Shown: positions 28,915 through 43,755 of the stretch, one piece after another
Layout: each line of letters opens with the position of its first letter
How positions within the stretch are numbered: position 1 is the stretch's first letter
Source of the DNA: an uncultured Spirochaetota bacterium
GTDB taxonomy: Bacteria; Spirochaetota; UBA4802; UBA5550
Reading direction: 5' to 3'
DNA: 64,000 nucleotides
NCBI GenBank assembly: GCA_963827275.1
Contig: CAWHAA010000009.1
Location: 96,001-160,000 of the forward strand
Notes under the pieces: generated by a model
Databases searched by the model: none
What the model saw: only the letters and a program-made list of their open reading frames with translations
Told to the model about the DNA's origin: nothing
Program-made: the position numbers and the translations under genes

Positions 28915-30448
28915 TTAGAATATATTCTTGAAGATCAGGGGCGTCCCTTTTTCGGCGAACTCCCGGAGCAGGACCTCTCCCTGCTCAACATCGCGGGGAT
29001 CGACTATGCGGGAGAGCCGGATCATGCTGCAGTCCCTGTTGTTCCCGAAATCAGTGAGCATGGCATGCTGCAGGTCCATATACCCGCCCAGATCCTTCCC
29101 GTTATACCTGTACCAGTAATACACCAGCAGGCCTTTTTCTCCATATATGAACAGCATTCTTGTCACTGTTCTTCCGGAAGGTAAGGCGAGCACACTCTGG
29201 CTTAGAAGATTGTATCCCTCATTTTTAAGGCAGAGTTCCGGTCTGTGCAGGAACGGGGTGCGGTCTCCCCGTGCGTGAATGAAATACAGATAGACGCTCA
29301 TTTCTTCCGGAGGTGTCGTCTGCTTTATAATATTCCCGCATCAGGACATCGTCCGTTTTCAACATCGAAAAGTAGATTTCCTCGAGCTTTTCATCGCGTG
29401 ATTTCCAGCCCGGGGCTTCTGTGCCGATAGAATTAATGAGAAGCGGGTATTTCACTTCTTTTGACCCGATGCTTTTCAGTTGAATGGCCAGTGATCCGGC
29501 GGCCATCAGTGCCATGATTATGATGAGCGGCACCATGTTGTTTTTCTTTTTTTCAGATGAGGGTGTGCCATCCGCTGTTTTTTCATCACCGACGGTTTTA
29601 AAATTTGGCACATCGTTAATGAGGGTGATTAAGACAAAAATAATAATAAATACTATGGTCCCTATGACCTCGTGAAATGCGCCCAGGGCATATTTCCCGT
29701 ACCCGTGTACGGTCAGTATCGTAACAATTATTATTCGCAATATATTGGACAGGAGCGCCGCGGGTATGGCTATCAGGTAATCCACTGCCGCTATCAGATT
29801 TCGCTTTTGAAAAAGCGCGAGGCACCAGAGAAGGGACGCCATGCCGAATATATTTTGCATCCCGCTGCATGCGGGGGTTATCTCGATAATATAATTGTTT
29901 ATGTTCAATGTAGTCCCATGGAGGCTCGTCGAGGGATACATCAGTGAAAGAAAAAATCCGGATATGCCGGCGGCCGCGAGTTTTAAATAGAATGTCGCAT
30001 GGTCGAGTAAAAAAGCGGGCAGGGGAATGGCCAGCAGAAGATATACAAAAAGCCCTTTATTGCGGTTAACAAAATATTTTCCCAGGAATAAAAAAGAGCA
30101 TCCCAGGATAAATAGATATATGGCAAAAAACCGAGAGGTTACTATTGCAGCGTATCGCCCGAAGACCTCGGCGGCCAATGCAATTGATAATAACGAGAAG
30201 CCCGCTACAGGGGAATCCCCGGTGTTCCTGTTGAAGGTCCCGTATCTTTTTTTGAGGATCCAGAGGAAAATCGCGAAAACAAAAGGCCCTTGTGAATAAT
30301 ATGAGCCTGATGCAAACCAGCGGAGAAGAAGCTCCCTGAGTGAGCCGAAAAAAAACAGGACTGAAAAAACAAATAACAATACCCGGAAAATCCAGATATT
30401 GTTATTTGTTTTTAAAAAGCCCTTTATTCCAGATATGGCTGGATACAA
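28915..30448 (-). CDS. Exosortase fused to EpsI domain, split by one frameshift near 29300-29320
   Basis: Catalytic triad motifs ITPACSG, SNILRI, AFHEVIG. EpsI-like L.TDDVLMREY continues in another frame as SVYLYF...HRPELC...VYYWY. Confidence 0.88.
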
Positions 30449-30456
30449 AATAATGC

Positions 30457-30693
30457 TTATTTTTTATCCAGGAACTTCTTTTTTACCGCAAAGGCAGCGC
30501 CCGCGCCGCCAAGGATTAAAAGTATTGTCGCAGGCTCAGGCACTCCGCCGCCCCCGGCATGGGGAGGATTATACCCCTGGAAAGGAGGTGTGGAAGGGTT
30601 GTTGTATTGCCAGATATTAGATATCCATGACATGCTAAAAGCCGTAGTAGAGCAGAGTAAGGTAAGAAAAAGTATAATCACAGTTTTTTTCAT
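30457..30693 (-). CDS. Very small PEP-CTERM sorting-domain protein (78 aa)
   Basis: Signal peptide MKKTVIILFLTLLCSTTAFS, 30-aa core, then VPEP-ATILLILGGAGAAFAV-KKKFLDKK; immediately upstream of the exosortase. Confidence 0.9.
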   Translation of the reverse strand: MKKTVIILFLTLLCSTTAFSMSWISNIWQYNNPSTPPFQGYNPPHAGGGGVPEPATILLILGGAGAAFAVKKKFLDKK

Positions 30694-31136
30694 ACAAAAC
30701 CTCATTAAAAATTATTCCTTAAATTCTTCATATAGCCTGATACAAAATAGCCCAATCGGGCTTTTTTGTATTCATGAATTAGTAAGCACTGTCCAGATTG
30801 TCCGATTACTTCCTTAATTGATAAAAATTAGTACTCTTTTACAGGTACTGAAATGGAAAGATTCTCTTAACTATTTTGTATAGGATGAAACTATCTTTTG
30901 TTTATATAATAAACCATAAATTGGTATTAGGCAAAAAAAACAAGATATTTTTTGTTTTTTTGAAATTTTACACCTGACTTTATCGGGAAATATATATGAA
31001 TTCATATCAATTTCGTGCAAAGTGTCTTTTTATTTAATAATAATTGACAGATTGCCTGAAAACCTGTCCAGTGCGTGCTGCTGCGGCCGTGAACGACCGG
31101 CCCCGCGCGTTACTGTCGTGTCCCGGGGGTGATGAA

Positions 31137-35879: not shown

Positions 35880-36943
35880 CTGCTCCAGTACCGATAGTAC
35901 GCCGCGCAGGGACCTTCAAGCGAAACCATGCAGGGGCCCACCGGCTCCTCGGGGGTGCAGGCCTTCCCGTACAGCGGGCAGGAAGGCGGGGAGATGAGGC
36001 CGCGGAGCAGCTCGCCGCACCGGCAGCCCTTCGCCTCTCGGACCGGCGGCGGGACGACCGGGAACTTGCGTGCCGCGTCGAAGTCCGCGTATTCGTCCCG
36101 GACCTCGAGGCCGCTTCCCGGTATCACGCCGATGCCGCGCCACTGCGCGTCGGATGTTTTGAAGACGCGGTCCATTATCTCGACGGCCTTCACGTTCCCT
36201 TCTTCCCTGACAACGCGGGTATACTGGTTTATGGTTTCGATCTTTTCCCTGATGACCATGTCGGCAAGCGCTATCATGCCCATCATGAGATCGGGTGCGT
36301 CGAAGCCGGATACCACGCACGGCTTTCCGTAGCGCTCCGCGATGAAGCGCCACGGCGCGACGCCGATGACCGCGCTCACGTGGCCCGGGAGGATGAACCC
36401 GTCGATCTTCACCTCCCGCGCGGCAAGGAGCGCGTCCACCGCCGGCGGGGTGAGCTTGTTCCCGGCAAGGAGCGAGAAGTTTTTCACGTTGCGCTGCTTC
36501 GCCTCGATGACGGTGGCCGCTTCCGCCGGGGCCGTGGTCTCGAAGCCCACGCTCAGGAAGATGACCTCCCTGCCGGCGTCCGCGGCGGCCATCTCCAGCG
36601 CGTCCACCGGCGAGTACACGATGCGCACGTCCATCCCCTCCGCCTTTTCCTTCGCGAGGGAGCTGTAGGACGAGGGGACCTTTATCATGTCGCCGAAGGT
36701 GGCGATGACGGGGCGGTGCTTCCTGCCGATCTCGATCGCGCGGTCCAGAAAATCGTTGGGCGTCACGCACACGGGGCACCCGGGCCCGTCAATGAGCTCC
36801 AGGTTTTCCGGGAACAGGTCCTTCACGCCGGTGCGGAAGAACTCGGTGGTGTGCGTGCCGCACACCTCCATGATCCGGACCGCCCGGTCCAGGCGGAGGC
36901 CCTTCAGGCGCGCCGCGAGTTTTTTATTCAGCTCGGTCGTCAT
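35876..36943 (-). CDS. hypD: HypD
   Basis: MEVCGTH, GPGCPVC, GFETTAP, PGHVS, GPCMVS.EG.C. Confidence 0.97.
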   Translation of the reverse strand: MTTELNKKLAARLKGLRLDRAVRIMEVCGTHTTEFFRTGVKDLFPENLELIDGPGCPVCVTPNDFLDRAIEIGRKHRPVIATFGDMIKVPSSYSSLAKEKAEGMDVRIVYSPVDALEMAAADAGREVIFLSVGFETTAPAEAATVIEAKQRNVKNFSLLAGNKLTPPAVDALLAAREVKIDGFILPGHVSAVIGVAPWRFIAERYGKPCVVSGFDAPDLMMGMIALADMVIREKIETINQYTRVVREEGNVKAVEIMDRVFKTSDAQWRGIGVIPGSGLEVRDEYADFDAARKFPVVPPPVREAKGCRCGELLRGLISPPSCPLYGKACTPEEPVGPCMVSLEGPCAAYYRYWSR

Positions 36944-37290
36944 TACGTTATTTCTATGCTTATGATCGAAAATTCCCGCCCTTCAAGGAGCTCAATGTCG
37001 TTCTCGTTGCATTTCAGGCAGGTGAAGCCCCATTCGCCGTCCGAGAAGGTGTGCTCGTTTCCACAAGATCTGCAGCGTACCTTGACCGGCACCCGCTCGA
37101 TGTCCAGGACCGCCCCGTTCGCGATGGTGTCCTTGCAGAGCATGTCGAAGTAGCTCTGCGCCCATTCCGGGATGATATCGGAGAGGCGGCCGATGCGCAG
37201 GTTAACTTTCGTGACCCTTTTCGCGTTGTTCCGGTTCGCGTGGTCCAGGACGATGTCCAGGATGTTGCCCATTATTGAGAGTTCGTGCAA
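36943..37290 (-). CDS. hypA: HypA (TTG start)
   Basis: MHELS, CRSC...CLKC, GREF. Confidence 0.95.
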   Translation of the reverse strand: MHELSIMGNILDIVLDHANRNNAKRVTKVNLRIGRLSDIIPEWAQSYFDMLCKDTIANGAVLDIERVPVKVRCRSCGNEHTFSDGEWGFTCLKCNENDIELLEGREFSIISIEIT

Positions 37291-37483
37291 TTGCGCTCCT
37301 GTGCTGACGGCGTTTTCTCTTTATAACCATCATAATCATAACGGGAAGGCGTTGATATATGTCAACTATTAATGGGCGGCTTGGACCGGCGTCCGGTTCC
37401 GGCGGGTCTGTCCGGTATTCAGGGCGGAGGCGTCTGATTAATCGGCGGCACCGTCGCATGACGGCGCAATTAGTACCGTGCAT

Positions 37484-37531
37484 CACAGGGGTGTCATACA
37501 ATCCGTTCCGGATTCAGTATAACTCCCCGTG
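37484..37531. other. Long imperfect hairpin between micro-peptide 1 and hypA
   Basis: CACAGGGGTGTCATAC...ATCCG/CGGAT...GTATAACTCCCCGTG inverted repeat. Confidence 0.55.
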
Positions 37532-37561
37532 TGCAGTAAACGGCAGGTTTACATGTTGAAA

Positions 37562-37633
37562 TTAAAATGGTAAAAGCGCGATTAACGCGATCGCGGTAAA
37601 TACCATTGCGAGCACCATCAATGTCTGCTTCAT
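37562..37633 (-). CDS. 23-aa hydrophobic micro-peptide 1 (MKQTLMVLAMVFTAIALIALLPF)
   Basis: AAGGGGG RBS 7 nt upstream; paralog of identical length at 39715-39786 with synonymous codon changes. Confidence 0.8.
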   Translation of the reverse strand: MKQTLMVLAMVFTAIALIALLPF

Positions 37634-37880
37634 GTCATATCCCCCTTAAGACCAGTGAGATCTATTTTTTTTGTGTAAACAAAATTCCGCCCAAGTGGGC
37701 TTTAATATTGTTATAGGAATTATTAATATATATTTAATTATATGTCTCGTTAATTTCTGATTAATCAGATATTGGTATAAATAAATAATTATTCTTGTAA
37801 TTATATAGCTTCCTGATGGCATATTTCATAGAAATTGTATTGAAAACCGCATATTGGATGTTTTCTTGAGGAGGCCCCCC

Positions 37881-39483
37881 ATGTCACAGCCGGACCGCAA
37901 CAATCCCTACAGTTTCAACGAATTCCTCGAATGGCGAAAGAATGTCGATTACTACGCCGACGATCCCTTCATCCAGAAGGTCGTGAAGCATTTCTGCGGA
38001 CCGGACAGGAAAAAGGTCGATGCGCGGGCGCGCGTGATATCCGCGAAGGCATCGTTCCGGTGGCGCGACATGGCGGAGGCCATCGCCTGGCCGGAAAAGC
38101 GGCCCTACATGATGCACTACGACGGCCATCACAACCGGATCGACCGGATCGTGCGGCCCCACGAGACGGAGATCATGGAACGGGAGGTGTTCGGCGAGCG
38201 CCTCTTTTCGGACGCCGTCACCCCCTGGGAGAAGCTCATCGGCATGTACATCATCTACCAGAACAGCGAGGCCTGTATCGCCTGCCCCCTGACCTGCACC
38301 GAGGGCCTGGTGAAGCTGCTGGAGAAATATGCGGACACGCCGGAGACGCGGCGCATCCTCGTGCACTGCAAGAACGGGATCGACGGCGAGGTGGCCATCG
38401 GCGCGCAGTACCTCTCGGAGATACAGGGCGGCTCCGACGTGCCGGCGAACCTGCTCGAGGCGGTGGAGGAGGAGGGGCGCGTGGCGGCTGTACGGGACCA
38501 AGTTCTTCTGCTCTGCCACCCACGCGGATTACGCCGTGGTGACGGCGAAGCCGCGCGGCTCGGAGAAGGTGGCGCTCTTCGTGGTGCCCTCCTGGCTGCC
38601 GGGAGACAGGGAGAAGGAGATACGCAACGGGTACACCATCGACCGGATCAAGTGGAAGATGGGAACCAGCGAGCTGACCACGGCCGAGCTCACCTTCAAC
38701 GGCGCGGTCGCCTACCCGGTGGGGCCCCTGGACCGGGGCCTGGCAAATGTCGTGGGGATCGTGCTGACCTATTCGCGCCTGACCGTGGGCCTGGCCGCGG
38801 GCGCGAGCATGGCCCGCTGCTGCCGCGAGGCGAAAAAGTACAGCGAGTTCCGCGAGGCCTTCGGCCTGCGGATCGGCGGCTTCCCGCTGGTGAAGCTGCA
38901 GCTGCGCGGAGATGGAGCGGTCTCGCGCGGCGGACCACCGCCGGCTCGTTCAAGCTCTACAGCGAGTTCCTGGGGCTCGAGGGCGGACTGAAGGGCGGCC
39001 TGGTCGGCCGACGAGCCGCCTGCAATGCGGCGGAAGCGCTTTGACGTGCGCGAGCTCATCATGCTGCAGAAGATCACGGCGGCGGCCGACTCGACAGACA
39101 TCGTGCGCACGGCGATGTCGATCTTCGGCGGCCACGGCGTGATGGAGGACTTCTCCTCCCTGCCGCGCTTCTACCGCGACGCCGCCATCAACGAGCTGTG
39201 GGAGGGGCCGCGGAACGTGCTCCTCACCCAGATGCATAACGACATGAAGAGGGCGGCCGACTGGTACGGCCCGGCTGACTTCGTCGGGTCTGTGCTGCGC
39301 GGGGCGGACACCGCGCATATCAATGCCTGTGCGGAGGAGATGGCGGAGCTCACCGCGCATCCGAACCTCTTCAGCGGCGATGAGAAGACGCTCGAGGTGT
39401 GCGGCAGGTGGGACCGGTTCTGCACCGATCTCTTTCATTCTTATCAGGATCTGGCCATGGCCGAGGTGGAGGGGGGCGCATAG
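37881..39483 (+). pseudogene. AidB-like acyl-CoA dehydrogenase with several frameshifts (probably sequencing error)
   Basis: CPLTCTEG and QYLSEIQGGSD; then LYGTKFFCSA, K.KMGT...TAE and SRL in a second frame; then FGGHGVMED and INELWEGPRNV. Confidence 0.85.
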
Positions 39484-39714
39484 TGCGCGATCGCGCTGTG
39501 ATGTTGATTCAGAGTAATCTTTTCTGATAAAATTACATTTTAGAATATACAAAAATAAATATATATTATTAGAAAATAACTATTATTTTATTCTTAAAAA
39601 ATTCCACGGTATTCATGAAATTAATTGACTAATTATAACGAAAACAATAGTTATGTTTTAAATAAAGCCCATATAGGCGGAATATAAATATATAAATTTT
39701 TCAGGGGATGAACA

Positions 39715-39786
39715 ATGAAACAGACCTTGTTTGTTGTGGGCATGGTAATCACGGCAATCGCGTTAATTGCTTTAATGCCGTTTTAA
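39715..39786 (+). CDS. 23-aa hydrophobic micro-peptide 2 (MKQTLFVVGMVITAIALIALMPF)
   Basis: AGGGGA RBS; paralog of 37562-37633; followed by a terminator. Confidence 0.8.
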   Translation: MKQTLFVVGMVITAIALIALMPF

Positions 39787-39825
39787 GTTTTTCAAGCTGA
39801 TTTTACTTAACATGCGATTGTTGTT

Positions 39826-39861
39826 AAAAGGGATAGGTATTTTGATACTATCCCTTTTTTT
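39826..39861 (+). terminator. Terminator after micro-peptide 2 (possibly bidirectional)
   Basis: AAAAGGGATAGGTAT-TTTG-ATACTATCCC-T7. Confidence 0.8.
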
Positions 39862-39901: not shown

Positions 39902-39996
39902 GGGGTCAGAGCAACTTTGACGGGGTCAGAGCAACTTTGACGGGGTCAGAGCAACTTTGACGGGGTCAGAGCAACTTTGACGGGGTCAGAGTAACT
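39902..39996. repeat. 20-bp tandem repeat GGGGTCAGAGCAACTTTGAC x4 plus a partial fifth copy
   Basis: Read directly; exact copies start at 39902, 39922, 39942 and 39962; degenerate copy at 39982. Confidence 0.95.
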
Positions 39997-43199: not shown

Positions 43200-43591
43200 G
43201 GAGAGGGCCAAGCGGCAGCGCTGGCCCGCCGCAAGGCGGGCGGTGAGGAAAGTCCGAACACCACAGGGCAGGGTGCCGGGTAACACCCGGGCGCCGCGAG
43301 GCGATGGAAAGTGCAACAGAAAGGATACCGCCCCTCGGCTTCGCTCGGGGCAGCGCCCGAAAGGGCGTCGCTCCGAGCGGAGTCGAGGAGCAAGGGTGAA
43401 ATGGTGAGGTAAGAGCTCACCGCGTCCGCGGTAACGCGGGCGGCAAGGTAAACCCCACCTGGTGCAAGGCCAAGTAAGCAGCCGCATCGAACTGCCCGTT
43501 CGTGGCTGCGGGTAGGCCGCAAGGATGCGCGCGGCGACGCGCGCACAAGATAGATTGCCGCATAAACAGAATTCGGCTTATGTCCCCCTCC
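43200..43591 (+). ncRNA. rnpB: RNase P RNA (bacterial type A)
   Basis: GAGGAAAGTCCG, GAAAGTGCAACAGA, GGGTGAAA..GGTAAGAGC, GGTAAACCCCAC and ACAGAATTCGGCTTA; compensatory P4 pairing (CCGAA/TTCGG); terminal P1 GGAGAGGGC/GTCCCCCTCC. Confidence 0.97.
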
Positions 43592-43755
43592 GTTTATCAC
43601 GGGCCCGGGGGTCCCGCGTCGTGCGGGGCGCCCCGGCCCGTGGTAAATTAATCCTTGATTTTTCTTTCGGCCCGCGTAGAGTACTGTTGCGGGCACGGAG
43701 TGCGGGCGGCGGGGCGCAACGGGAGGCGCCCCCAATTCATGCAGGGAGGTATGTC

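Follow-up and report, generated by a model that had tools for sequence, protein, structure and literature searches.

AcrZ and MgtS are regulon-encoded modulators of membrane proteins that consist of a single helix. Another precedent of this kind is MgrB, a regulon-encoded single-helix modulator acting with PhoQ, as described in the cited part of PMC12648545. Type I toxins constitute a different group of small hydrophobic peptides, whose genes typically occur in a patchy manner, scattered or in tandem, within long intergenic stretches rich in A+T (PMC2887945, section cited), and streptococcal SHP precursors are encoded in several copies per genome (PMC3679016, section cited).

The window analysed here is a stretch of 64,000 nucleotides of spirochaetal DNA. 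The host spirochaetes are uncultured and have been found in bioreactor and sediment samples. An earlier note had placed two short ORFs at 37562-37633 (minus strand) and 39715-39786 (plus strand) of the window, and both were located there. The features of the region are the following:

36943 to 37290, minus strand: neighbouring gene hypA, with a promoter-like element at about 37335-37375
37470 to 37545, minus strand: strong hairpin 3' of copy 1, without U-tract (-33.4 kcal/mol, z -5.2)
37562 to 37633, minus strand: peptide gene copy 1, 23 aa, one predicted hydrophobic helix
37641 to 37647, minus strand: G-rich ribosome-binding site of copy 1, read from the sequence
37682 to 37703, unstranded: palindromic operator-like site ahead of copy 1, CCR-N6-YGG frame with A+T-rich flanks (score 8.8, peptide-free matrix)
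37719 to 37753, minus strand: weak, putative sigma-70-like promoter matches of copy 1, not above chance across copies
37756 to 37769, unstranded: second palindromic box of 14 bp, further upstream of copy 1 and common to several locus-A copies
37881 to 39483, plus strand: acyl-CoA dehydrogenase-like gene between the copies, with four single-base insertions in this assembly
39664 to 39685, unstranded: palindromic operator-like site ahead of copy 2 (score 10.4, peptide-free matrix)
39703 to 39708, plus strand: G-rich ribosome-binding site of copy 2, read from the sequence
39715 to 39786, plus strand: peptide gene copy 2, 23 aa
39800 to 39827, minus strand: antisense sigma-70-like match behind copy 2 (10 of 12), at a position not conserved in other copies
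39826 to 39861, plus strand: terminator-like hairpin with U-tract, 3' of copy 2 (-14.2 kcal/mol, z -3.2)

As the earlier note had described, a G-rich ribosome-binding site stands before each ORF and the 200 nt upstream are A+T-rich (74% and 80%). Both copies also have the downstream hairpin attributed to them, but the two hairpins differ, the U-tract being present in copy 2 only, and that of copy 1 (37470-37545) was not found in the printed flanks of any other copy. The hairpin at 39826-39861 would close copy 2 as a separate transcript, and the 14-bp box at 37756-37769 is possibly a second regulator site.

Both peptides have 23 aa, of which 18 are identical, and their 23 sense codons comprise nine identical, nine synonymous and five replaced ones. 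This likeness exceeds chance, since the four family members in the source genome (G000) score 70-108 whereas the next of its 127,899 stop-bounded segments reaches 47. Regarding the pair as twins is correct in that both ORFs are real, but they are two among four copies of that genome. A profile search revealed 19 copies in 10 of the 17 genomes of the genus, with a maximum of four per genome, and no member in other genera among 122 genomes of the class and 401 of the phylum. Any partner of the peptide must therefore work without it in the seven genus genomes that gave no match. Eight weak matches from outside the genus (G021, G096, G111, G116, G130, G142, G235 and G270; E 8e-4 to 0.05) were rejected and left out of the counts: they are partial and lie inside open frames of 87-427 aa, and the only one inspected (G021) corresponds to a signal-peptide-like start. 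Distant homologs were also sought by synteny, but among the short hydrophobic ORFs at 30 lipoprotein and 29 phoH2 loci only known members scored (63-78 for the family, at most 21 for other ORFs).

All 19 copies begin with ATG and have exactly 23 aa, length and stop position being fixed while all three stop codons are in use. Selection on the peptide, which had been deduced from the two window copies, extends to the whole family: pN is lower than pS in all 171 pairs compared (0.25 and 0.76 on average), these pairs not being independent of each other, and G007a and G001b are separated by 15 synonymous and no replacement changes. Besides, the 69 sense bases of copy 2 are unchanged in spanning contigs from three other runs (X3, X6 and X12), in which the flanks carry substitutions and indels and one stop codon is exchanged from TAA to TGA. 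Copies, pN/pS values, other-run contigs and helix features all support the proposal of a small single-TM peptide family under selection. Judged from their sequences, both window ORFs are copies of a conserved, genus-restricted 23-aa hydrophobic peptide.

No known small-protein family was recovered from Pfam or NCBIfam at cut-off. The NCBIfam model NF040918 ('LPFR motif small protein') matches 3 of the 19 members weakly over model positions 4-23 (17.7-18.6 bits against a cut-off of 40; best E 0.0012), but this model has 35 positions whereas the peptide stops at 23, and none of the members has Arg after Pro-Phe. The best PHROGs match, again in three of the 19 members, has an E of 0.004, and there was no match in phages, plasmids or viral contigs (plasmids by tblastn with a 23-aa query, of low sensitivity). 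In a protein search none of 145 candidates reached E 0.01 or better, which says little because the peptides are not in that collection; none of the five members tested occurs among about 15 billion predicted proteins. No literature was found on hydrophobic type I toxin small proteins in spirochetes, nor on LPFR small proteins. Thus, as far as the library searches go, this is a small-protein family without a name that gene callers have missed.

The peptide has a mean hydropathy of about 1.9 and is not amphipathic (hydrophobic moment 0.078). One charged residue is present in 17 of the 19 copies, none of the 19 has a charged residue at positions 10-23, and the single Glu of the set is at position 9 of one copy. 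Conservation over residues 5-21 (17 positions) is periodic with a peak at 100-110 degrees, a value given without significance test; M10, T13, A14, L17 and L20 are near-invariant and positions 9, 12, 19 and 23 variable, so that the conserved residues fall on one face of the predicted helix. The Pro-Phe ending noted in the window pair does not hold for the family as a whole: Pro is at position 22 in 18 of the 19 copies, and the last residue is F (6), V (6), A (3), M (2) or I (2).

The upstream element that the two window copies share (a 21-nt match, 86% alike) had been taken as a feature of the pair; the match stands, but the element, a palindrome, reads best as belonging to a genus-wide motif class and not as private to the pair. 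It precedes 15 of the 19 copies, including every tandem copy and copy 2; as there is no divergent gene at copy 2, its palindrome can serve there only the peptide gene or some RNA. On a matrix built from intergenic DNA of the source genome with all peptide loci excluded, 14 of these 15 sites score 8.8-13.9 and that of G014a only 4.6, and the four motif-less copies score -1.7 to 4.0. The seed dyad of this matrix was enriched de novo (24 against 7.2 in shuffles), and 2 of 54 sites are located between convergent genes as compared with 256 of 2163 regions. With the pattern derived from the peptide sites there were 267 matches, the reversed control giving 116, and the excess over control held in 17 of 17 genomes. 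Within the class the peptide sites are weak members, ranking 45-141 among 2163 intergenic best scores. Similar operator-like sites stand throughout the genus in front of genes for lipid use and the envelope; in the ORFs behind look-alike sites, which were the analyst's own selection, the genes are mixed (cyclases, EAL/GGDEF proteins, peptidases, LeuB and many without family). In 9 of 16 genomes the best sites of the matrix are upstream of one TetR ortholog, and the source genome contains 26 TetR-domain matches; the peptide sites look nearer to a second motif variant than to the TetR-linked one. A strain variant at 39675 makes the palindrome of copy 2 more symmetric. An antisense-RNA terminator was also considered for the palindrome and rejected, the hairpins being weak (z -1.7 and -1.2). 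The element reads best as a palindromic operator-like site. The TetR regulator PaaR operates through an inverted repeat whose outer frame is identical (PMC2770484, section cited).

The main reading, to which we give a probability of roughly 45%, is that the peptide is a single-helix modulator of a putative membrane-protein partner, controlled by a transcription factor. The ORF would be translated. The 23-aa product would insert into the membrane as one predicted helix with its single Lys/Arg inside, and the conserved helix face would contact a protein partner, likely tuning a membrane protein. A transcription factor bound to the upstream palindrome, possibly a TetR-type repressor, would probably turn synthesis on and off, and the peptide may be part of a programme for lipid use or the cell envelope. 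Against this reading, promoter matches in sense orientation do not exceed chance (8 of 19 copies, 9.7 expected). As each locus has different neighbours, the partner is not encoded beside the peptide gene. What the family itself displays is a conserved frame, length and stop position, purifying selection, multiple copies, a stand-alone position and a palindrome that travels with 15 of the 19 copies. Among the three functions offered by the earlier note, that of membrane-complex regulator fits best, its protein partner being a presumed one. The loci illustrate how a small, predicted membrane peptide arises within one genus, inserts into an operon-like gene run and, along with its putative control element, spreads by copying to further sites; should the peptide be a modulator, it provides a lead to how uncultured spirochaetes regulate lipid uptake or the building of their envelope.

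A second, unlikely though serious reading is that of a membrane-active stress or dormancy peptide, either type I toxin-like (Ibs, Ldr, ZorO) or antitoxin-free and YohP-like, which would oligomerise and lower the membrane potential, the conserved face being a self-association surface. Short length and hydrophobicity agree with it (23 aa, within the 70 aa or less of such toxins, and one predicted membrane helix), as does the arrangement of the copies, which are in tandem in 2 of the 10 genomes (G004 and G010), dispersed in two others, and placed within long gaps that are absent from peptide-free relatives, all of this matching features used in searches for such toxins (PMC2887945, section cited). 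Antisense promoter-like matches 3' of the ORF (7 of 19 copies where 3.5 would be expected, window copy 2 among them) and reverse promoter-like matches in the leader (10 of 19 against 1.8, at an identical offset in five copies of one clade) point in the same direction; from the latter it follows that the palindrome there may control the divergent gene or else an RNA in antisense. However, the 3' antisense offsets are scattered, the 3' flanks of the copies do not align, and Rfam gave no match near either window copy. The C-terminus lacks charged or polar residues, and amphipathy is missing. The SD is not sequestered when compared with 60 synonymous recodings per copy (window -45 to stop+25), its mean pairing quantile being 0.55 over the 19 copies with 2 of 19 below 0.05; pairing with the Pro-22 codon region appears in some single folds, but not above recoded controls. 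Over leader plus ORF the mRNA does not come out as structured (z -2.4 to +1.5), and at synonymous sites, which are unconstrained, the peptide gene diverges about as much as its neighbour does (0.69 and 0.78). Three hallmarks of the type I toxin-like option of the earlier note, SD sequestration, a conserved 3' antisense promoter and a charged C-terminus, were looked for and not found.

It is improbable that the peptide is a signal precursor from which an intramembrane protease frees the C-terminal residues, with lineage-specific tails acting as pherotypes on a receptor outside the Rgg/RNPP group, perhaps the palindrome-binding factor. The typical length of SHP precursors is similar to that of the 23-aa peptide, whose layout (basic start, hydrophobic body) resembles theirs too, and its C-terminal five residues sort into lineage- and locus-specific types. 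On the other hand, conservation peaks in mid-helix and is low at the last residue, no regulator gene is found among the listed neighbouring ORFs of the 19 copies, and the source genome, 92% complete, contains no match to Rgg (TIGR01716) or RNPP_C (PF18768), which weakens the earlier suggestion of a pheromone precursor. Also lacking is the conserved acidic residue (Asp/Glu) with which mature SHPs begin (PMC3679016, section cited). A fuller version, still harder to credit, is a diderm-spirochaete signal system in which cleavage of the 23-mer takes place in the membrane and the regulator that binds the gene's own upstream palindrome, and a regulon of envelope, exopolysaccharide and lipid-scavenging genes, senses the lineage-specific tail with its Pro; if true, it would represent peptide quorum sensing without any Rgg/RNPP receptor.

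It is quite improbable, too, that the ORF is part of a hitchhiking A+T-rich cassette of little host benefit or what is left of an exported protein after truncation, namely its signal peptide. In the sister genome G009 the corresponding junctions have neither window copy, the peptide resembles a signal peptide without mature part, and look-alike palindromes also precede exported proteins. Nevertheless, fixed length and stop position and the strong selection speak against both versions, the cassettes of the source genome have only the ORF and promoter region in common, with no repeated ends, and a parent protein was not found in that genome. The best match there, the membrane helix of a vWA-domain protein (C5:323332-324333, E 0.023), is not kept across orthologs and was rejected as a case of mimicry: of 14 ortholog segments only 2 fall below E 0.05, and the match is therefore taken as chance. 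The acyl-CoA dehydrogenase-like gene between the copies was also considered as a pseudogene and rejected: its insertions are absent in contigs of 2-3 other DNA runs and the G009 ortholog is intact (533 aa), so the four single-base insertions are most likely assembly errors.

Least probable of all is a cis-acting leader or partner of the neighbours (hypADEC, glpD or phoH2): hypA runs in the same direction as copy 1, phoH2 in the same direction as four copies, and several copies diverge from genes of lipid metabolism (glpD in 6 genomes, also an acyltransferase and the acyl-CoA dehydrogenase), but the main locus, with 12 of the 19 copies, has a convergent gene downstream, phoH2 and hypA retain promoter-like elements of their own in relatives without the peptide there (four relatives for hypA), and in 4 of 10 genomes an rluA-like gene replaces glpD while peptide and palindrome stay. 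The link to hypADEC implied by the earlier note is incidental, since in G009 hypA has its own promoter-like element and no peptide gene is present at that junction.

With regard to known systems, the operator of PaaR in Burkholderia cenocepacia likewise combines this outer frame with a short, GC-rich inverted repeat and lies close to promoters of catabolic genes (PMC2770484, section cited), whereas the peptide sites are degenerate and asymmetric in comparison with TetR operators, and the candidate binder would be one of the 26 TetR proteins or another factor. SHP/Rgg systems share a short hydrophobic peptide with basic start and several copies per genome (PMC3679016, section cited), but the spirochaete peptide belongs to a diderm host and comes without an adjacent or genomic Rgg/RNPP match and without the conserved acidic residue. 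Ibs/Sib, Ldr/Rdl, Fst and ZorO/OrzO have in common with it a short hydrophobic ORF of fixed length in tandem and dispersed, patchy copies within long intergenic regions (PMC2887945 and PMC8594479, sections cited); unlike them, the family has an operator-like palindrome and lacks the charged C-terminus, SD/anti-SD structure, structured mRNA and conserved antisense promoter or terminator. Modulators of the type of MgrB (PMC12648545, section cited) share with the spirochaete peptide a length under 50 aa, one hydrophobic helix, omission from annotation and a promoter region of their own containing a regulator-like site; the peptide differs from them in having no sequence match, in being shorter (23 aa) and without soluble extension, and in being multicopy and restricted to one spirochaete genus. 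By analogy, single-helix membrane-protein modulators are what the peptide most likely works like.

The two divergent frames that the earlier note had pointed out, each coding for a 23-aa hydrophobic peptide, were confirmed, and their products are identical at 18 of 23 residues; of the codons, 9 are the same, 9 differ synonymously and 5 are replacements. Both are real, but the "twin" pair is only two of four copies in the host genome, where the tails of 127,899 stop-bounded segments were scored against both peptides and four members were obtained (108, 106, 89 and 70; the next segment scored 47). These copies, and the gene between the first two, are the following:

Window 37562-37633, minus strand: copy 1 of the peptide gene
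Window 39715-39786, plus strand: copy 2 of the peptide gene
Host contig C2, 32931-33002: third copy, from segment scoring
Host contig C5, 541829-541900: fourth copy, from segment scoring
Window 37881-39483: acyl-CoA dehydrogenase-like gene, broken in this assembly by one-base insertions at four places, near 38473, 38910, 38923 and 39004

A profile of the four copies gave 19 full-length matches in 10 of the 64 genomes of the host's family. The resulting 19-row profile recovered the same 19 copies, and searches of 122 genomes from the order and class, and of 401 sampled from the phylum, gave no further full-length match; eight weak partial matches inside long frames were left out of the family counts. 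Carriers are confined to the genus of the host (10 of 17 genomes). All 19 copies start with ATG and are exactly 23 aa long; the stop codon, which is TAA, TGA or TAG, always falls at the same position. Besides, four metagenome loci were found by a degenerate pattern, and the peptide type is identical in all of them. No Pfam or NCBIfam model reached its cut-off (best NF040918, 18.6 bits against 40), and the family was not found in literature searches. Five members tested were absent from about 15 billion predicted proteins, and for this reason blank protein searches say little. The peptides are a real small-protein family of a known general kind, apparently undescribed.

In 171 of 171 pairs, which are not independent, pN is lower than pS (means 0.25 and 0.76), and one ortholog pair differs by 15 synonymous and 0 replacement changes. 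In contigs of three other DNA runs the 69 sense bases of copy 2 are unchanged, with one stop-to-stop exchange, and its flanks carry substitutions and indels. Copies 1 and 2 are near saturation at synonymous sites (pS 0.81) and the promoter region of each is 74-76% alike to that of the C2 copy; therefore, the two did not arise by recent duplication of one another.

A single charged residue, at position 2, is found in 17 of 19 copies, charge after position 9 in none, and the hydrophobic moment is 0.078. The peptide is predicted to be one membrane helix, with its N-terminus inside by the positive-inside rule. Conservation over residues 5-21 is periodic at 100-110 degrees (a value without significance test); M10, T13, A14, L17 and L20 are near-invariant, positions 9, 12, 19 and 23 are variable, and Pro22 is present in 18 of 19. 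From this pattern we infer that one helix face is under a constraint that hydrophobicity does not explain, which would suit a surface for binding or self-association. A likeness to a helix of a vWA-domain protein failed across orthologs. The upstream tandem copy of the relative G004 (L029:303-371) has lost Pro22, has gained a Glu mid-helix and may be decaying.

Twelve copies, from all ten carrier genomes, occupy a main locus, in tandem in two genomes. Here the divergent neighbour is glpD in 6 genomes and an rluA-like gene in the other 4, and the peptide gene is convergent with two small lipoproteins and a TonB-dependent receptor, although the G004 contig stops short of the lipoproteins. Genes adjoining the peptide copies match Leptospira-type lipoprotein models below cut-off, in line with the host being an uncultured spirochaete. 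In five peptide-free members of the genus the lipoprotein runs almost directly into glpD, so it looks as if an operon-like run had been interrupted by insertion of the peptide gene together with its A+T-rich promoter zone. In the host locus L001 (G000:C2:27000-39000) the peptide gene lies in antisense orientation within a run of genes for a TonB receptor, two lipoproteins, glpD and a FAD oxidase; in the five relatives compared (L053-L057) this run is unbroken, and the arrangement is a possible noncontiguous operon. A distinct subtype, set apart by a 99/99 branch, accounts for the four copies that precede phoH2; the remaining three, the window copies and one of G014, are dispersed. Carriers cluster on a TetR marker tree (2 changes against 5.5 for shuffles), which is compatible with one origin.

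Fifteen of the 19 copies have a palindrome with the frame CCR-N6-YGG, one per tandem copy, which begins 45-93 nt ahead of the ATG and is absent from all four phoH2-linked copies; a second palindrome, of 14 bp, lies about 60 nt further upstream in several copies. Host intergenic DNA from which the peptide loci were excluded is enriched in a dyad of this kind (24 against 7.2 in shuffles), and the matrix grown from it gave 54 sites; 2 of these lie between convergent genes, as do 256 of the 2163 regions. On this matrix 14 of the 15 peptide sites score 8.8-13.9 and the four motif-free copies -1.7 to 4.0; the ranks of the peptide sites are modest (45-141 of 2163). Genes downstream of the strongest sites code for a carboxylesterase, lipase-like hydrolases, a CoA-ligase-like protein, very large proteins that start like lipoproteins and a TetR regulator. 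The operator-like motif stands ahead of genes for lipase-like, esterase and very large exported proteins at host loci such as L128 (C5:619183-622013), L107, L126, L112, L113 and L117. One site lies between the TetR gene and a 510-aa protein without Pfam match, whose N-terminus resembles that of FadL-type transporters. Of 16 genomes, 9 retain the site by the TetR gene, and in two of the others the flanks are short.

A pattern derived from the sites of the peptide genes gave 267 matches against 116 for its reversed control, palindromes being partly counted twice, and was higher in 17 of 17 genomes. Thirty of its loci were read and 15 hand-chosen proteins scanned: an LruC domain, an exosortase signature and LeuB passed the cut-off, and four LA_0442/LA_0875-type, one OmpA-like, one TafC-like and one anti-sigma antagonist match were below it. 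Qualitatively, the peptide sites look nearer to a variant frequently found ahead of genes for exported and envelope proteins. This look-alike variant occurs genus-wide (L175-L204) before LA_0442/LA_0875-type, LruC-domain, OmpA-like, TafC-like and exosortase genes, possibly as a second, envelope regulon. Host intergenic DNA also has a very abundant short dyad (177 against 9 in shuffles), which suggests dispersed repeats of REP-like type.

The favoured reading of the whole, with a probability of roughly 0.45, is that some condition of the lipids or the envelope would make a regulator leave the palindrome, a short transcript would then be made, copy 2 carrying a terminator-like hairpin, and the peptide helix would bind and tune a membrane protein encoded elsewhere. 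Past a conserved coding ORF with a travelling palindrome, we infer every step of this mechanism.

A toxin-like or dormancy peptide is unlikely. In PMC2887945 type I toxins are characterised by ORFs that are short and hydrophobic, by tandem copies, by long gaps and by charged C-termini; the peptide family shares the first three, whereas its C-terminus is uncharged. Promoter-like matches are also in favour, both 3' antisense ones (7 of 19 copies against 3.5 expected; scattered, one behind copy 2) and reverse ones in the leader (10 of 19 against 1.8; at one offset in five related copies, in neither window copy); the reverse matches may serve the divergent gene or give an antisense RNA. However, SD/anti-SD sequestration and terminators are treated as key to type I toxins in PMC8594479, and pairing of the SD does not exceed that in synonymous recodings (mean quantile 0.55). 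The mRNA region has no unusual structure, synonymous divergence is like that of the neighbouring gene (0.69 against 0.78), the 3' flanks of the copies do not align and Rfam gave no match near copy 1 or copy 2. In the leaders of L023, L019, L024, L029 and L020 an opposite-strand sigma-70-like match has its -35 beside the peptide SD and its start at the palindrome; it is perfect in G004b.

A signal precursor is distinctly improbable, since two hallmarks of SHP-type pheromones (PMC3679016) are missing, the Rgg receptor from the 92% complete host genome and the conserved acidic residue from the peptides. A hitchhiker or remnant has slightly poorer prospects still, and a cis-acting leader the poorest, as the promoter-like elements of hypA and phoH2 are kept in relatives without the peptide there.

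Related to this, the element upstream of hypA (window 37335-37375), in which -35-like and -10-like hexamers about 19 nt apart were read by eye, is conserved in G009, G010, G016 and G014. In the sister genome G009, whose proteins are about 90% identical, the genes for HypA, the acyl-CoA dehydrogenase and a glycosyltransferase follow one another in unchanged order, separated by short gaps that hold no peptide gene. The hyp neighbourhood of copy 1, which had implied a link to hypADEC, is therefore incidental. The G009 ortholog of the acyl-CoA dehydrogenase-like gene is intact (533 aa) and the four insertions, among the indels listed, are absent from contigs of two or three other runs; thus they are probably long-read assembly errors rather than marks of a pseudogene. 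Beyond the terminator-like hairpin of copy 2, about 4.5 exact copies of a 20-bp unit (window 39902-39991) are 40 bases shorter in one other run and absent in G009. Elsewhere in the window of this spirochaete, an exosortase-family gene (29225-30705) stands directly behind an 82-aa PEP-CTERM protein, and a class A RNase P RNA is found at 43200-43595 (Rfam RF00010, 277 bits).

For the favoured reading, of a released palindrome and a tuning helix, known systems offer two comparisons. The TetR regulator PaaR acts via an inverted repeat, according to PMC2770484, and this repeat has the same outer frame as the peptide palindrome. MgrB binds and tunes PhoQ, as described in PMC12648545, and this pair is the model for the helix-binding step, in which a membrane protein would be bound and tuned.
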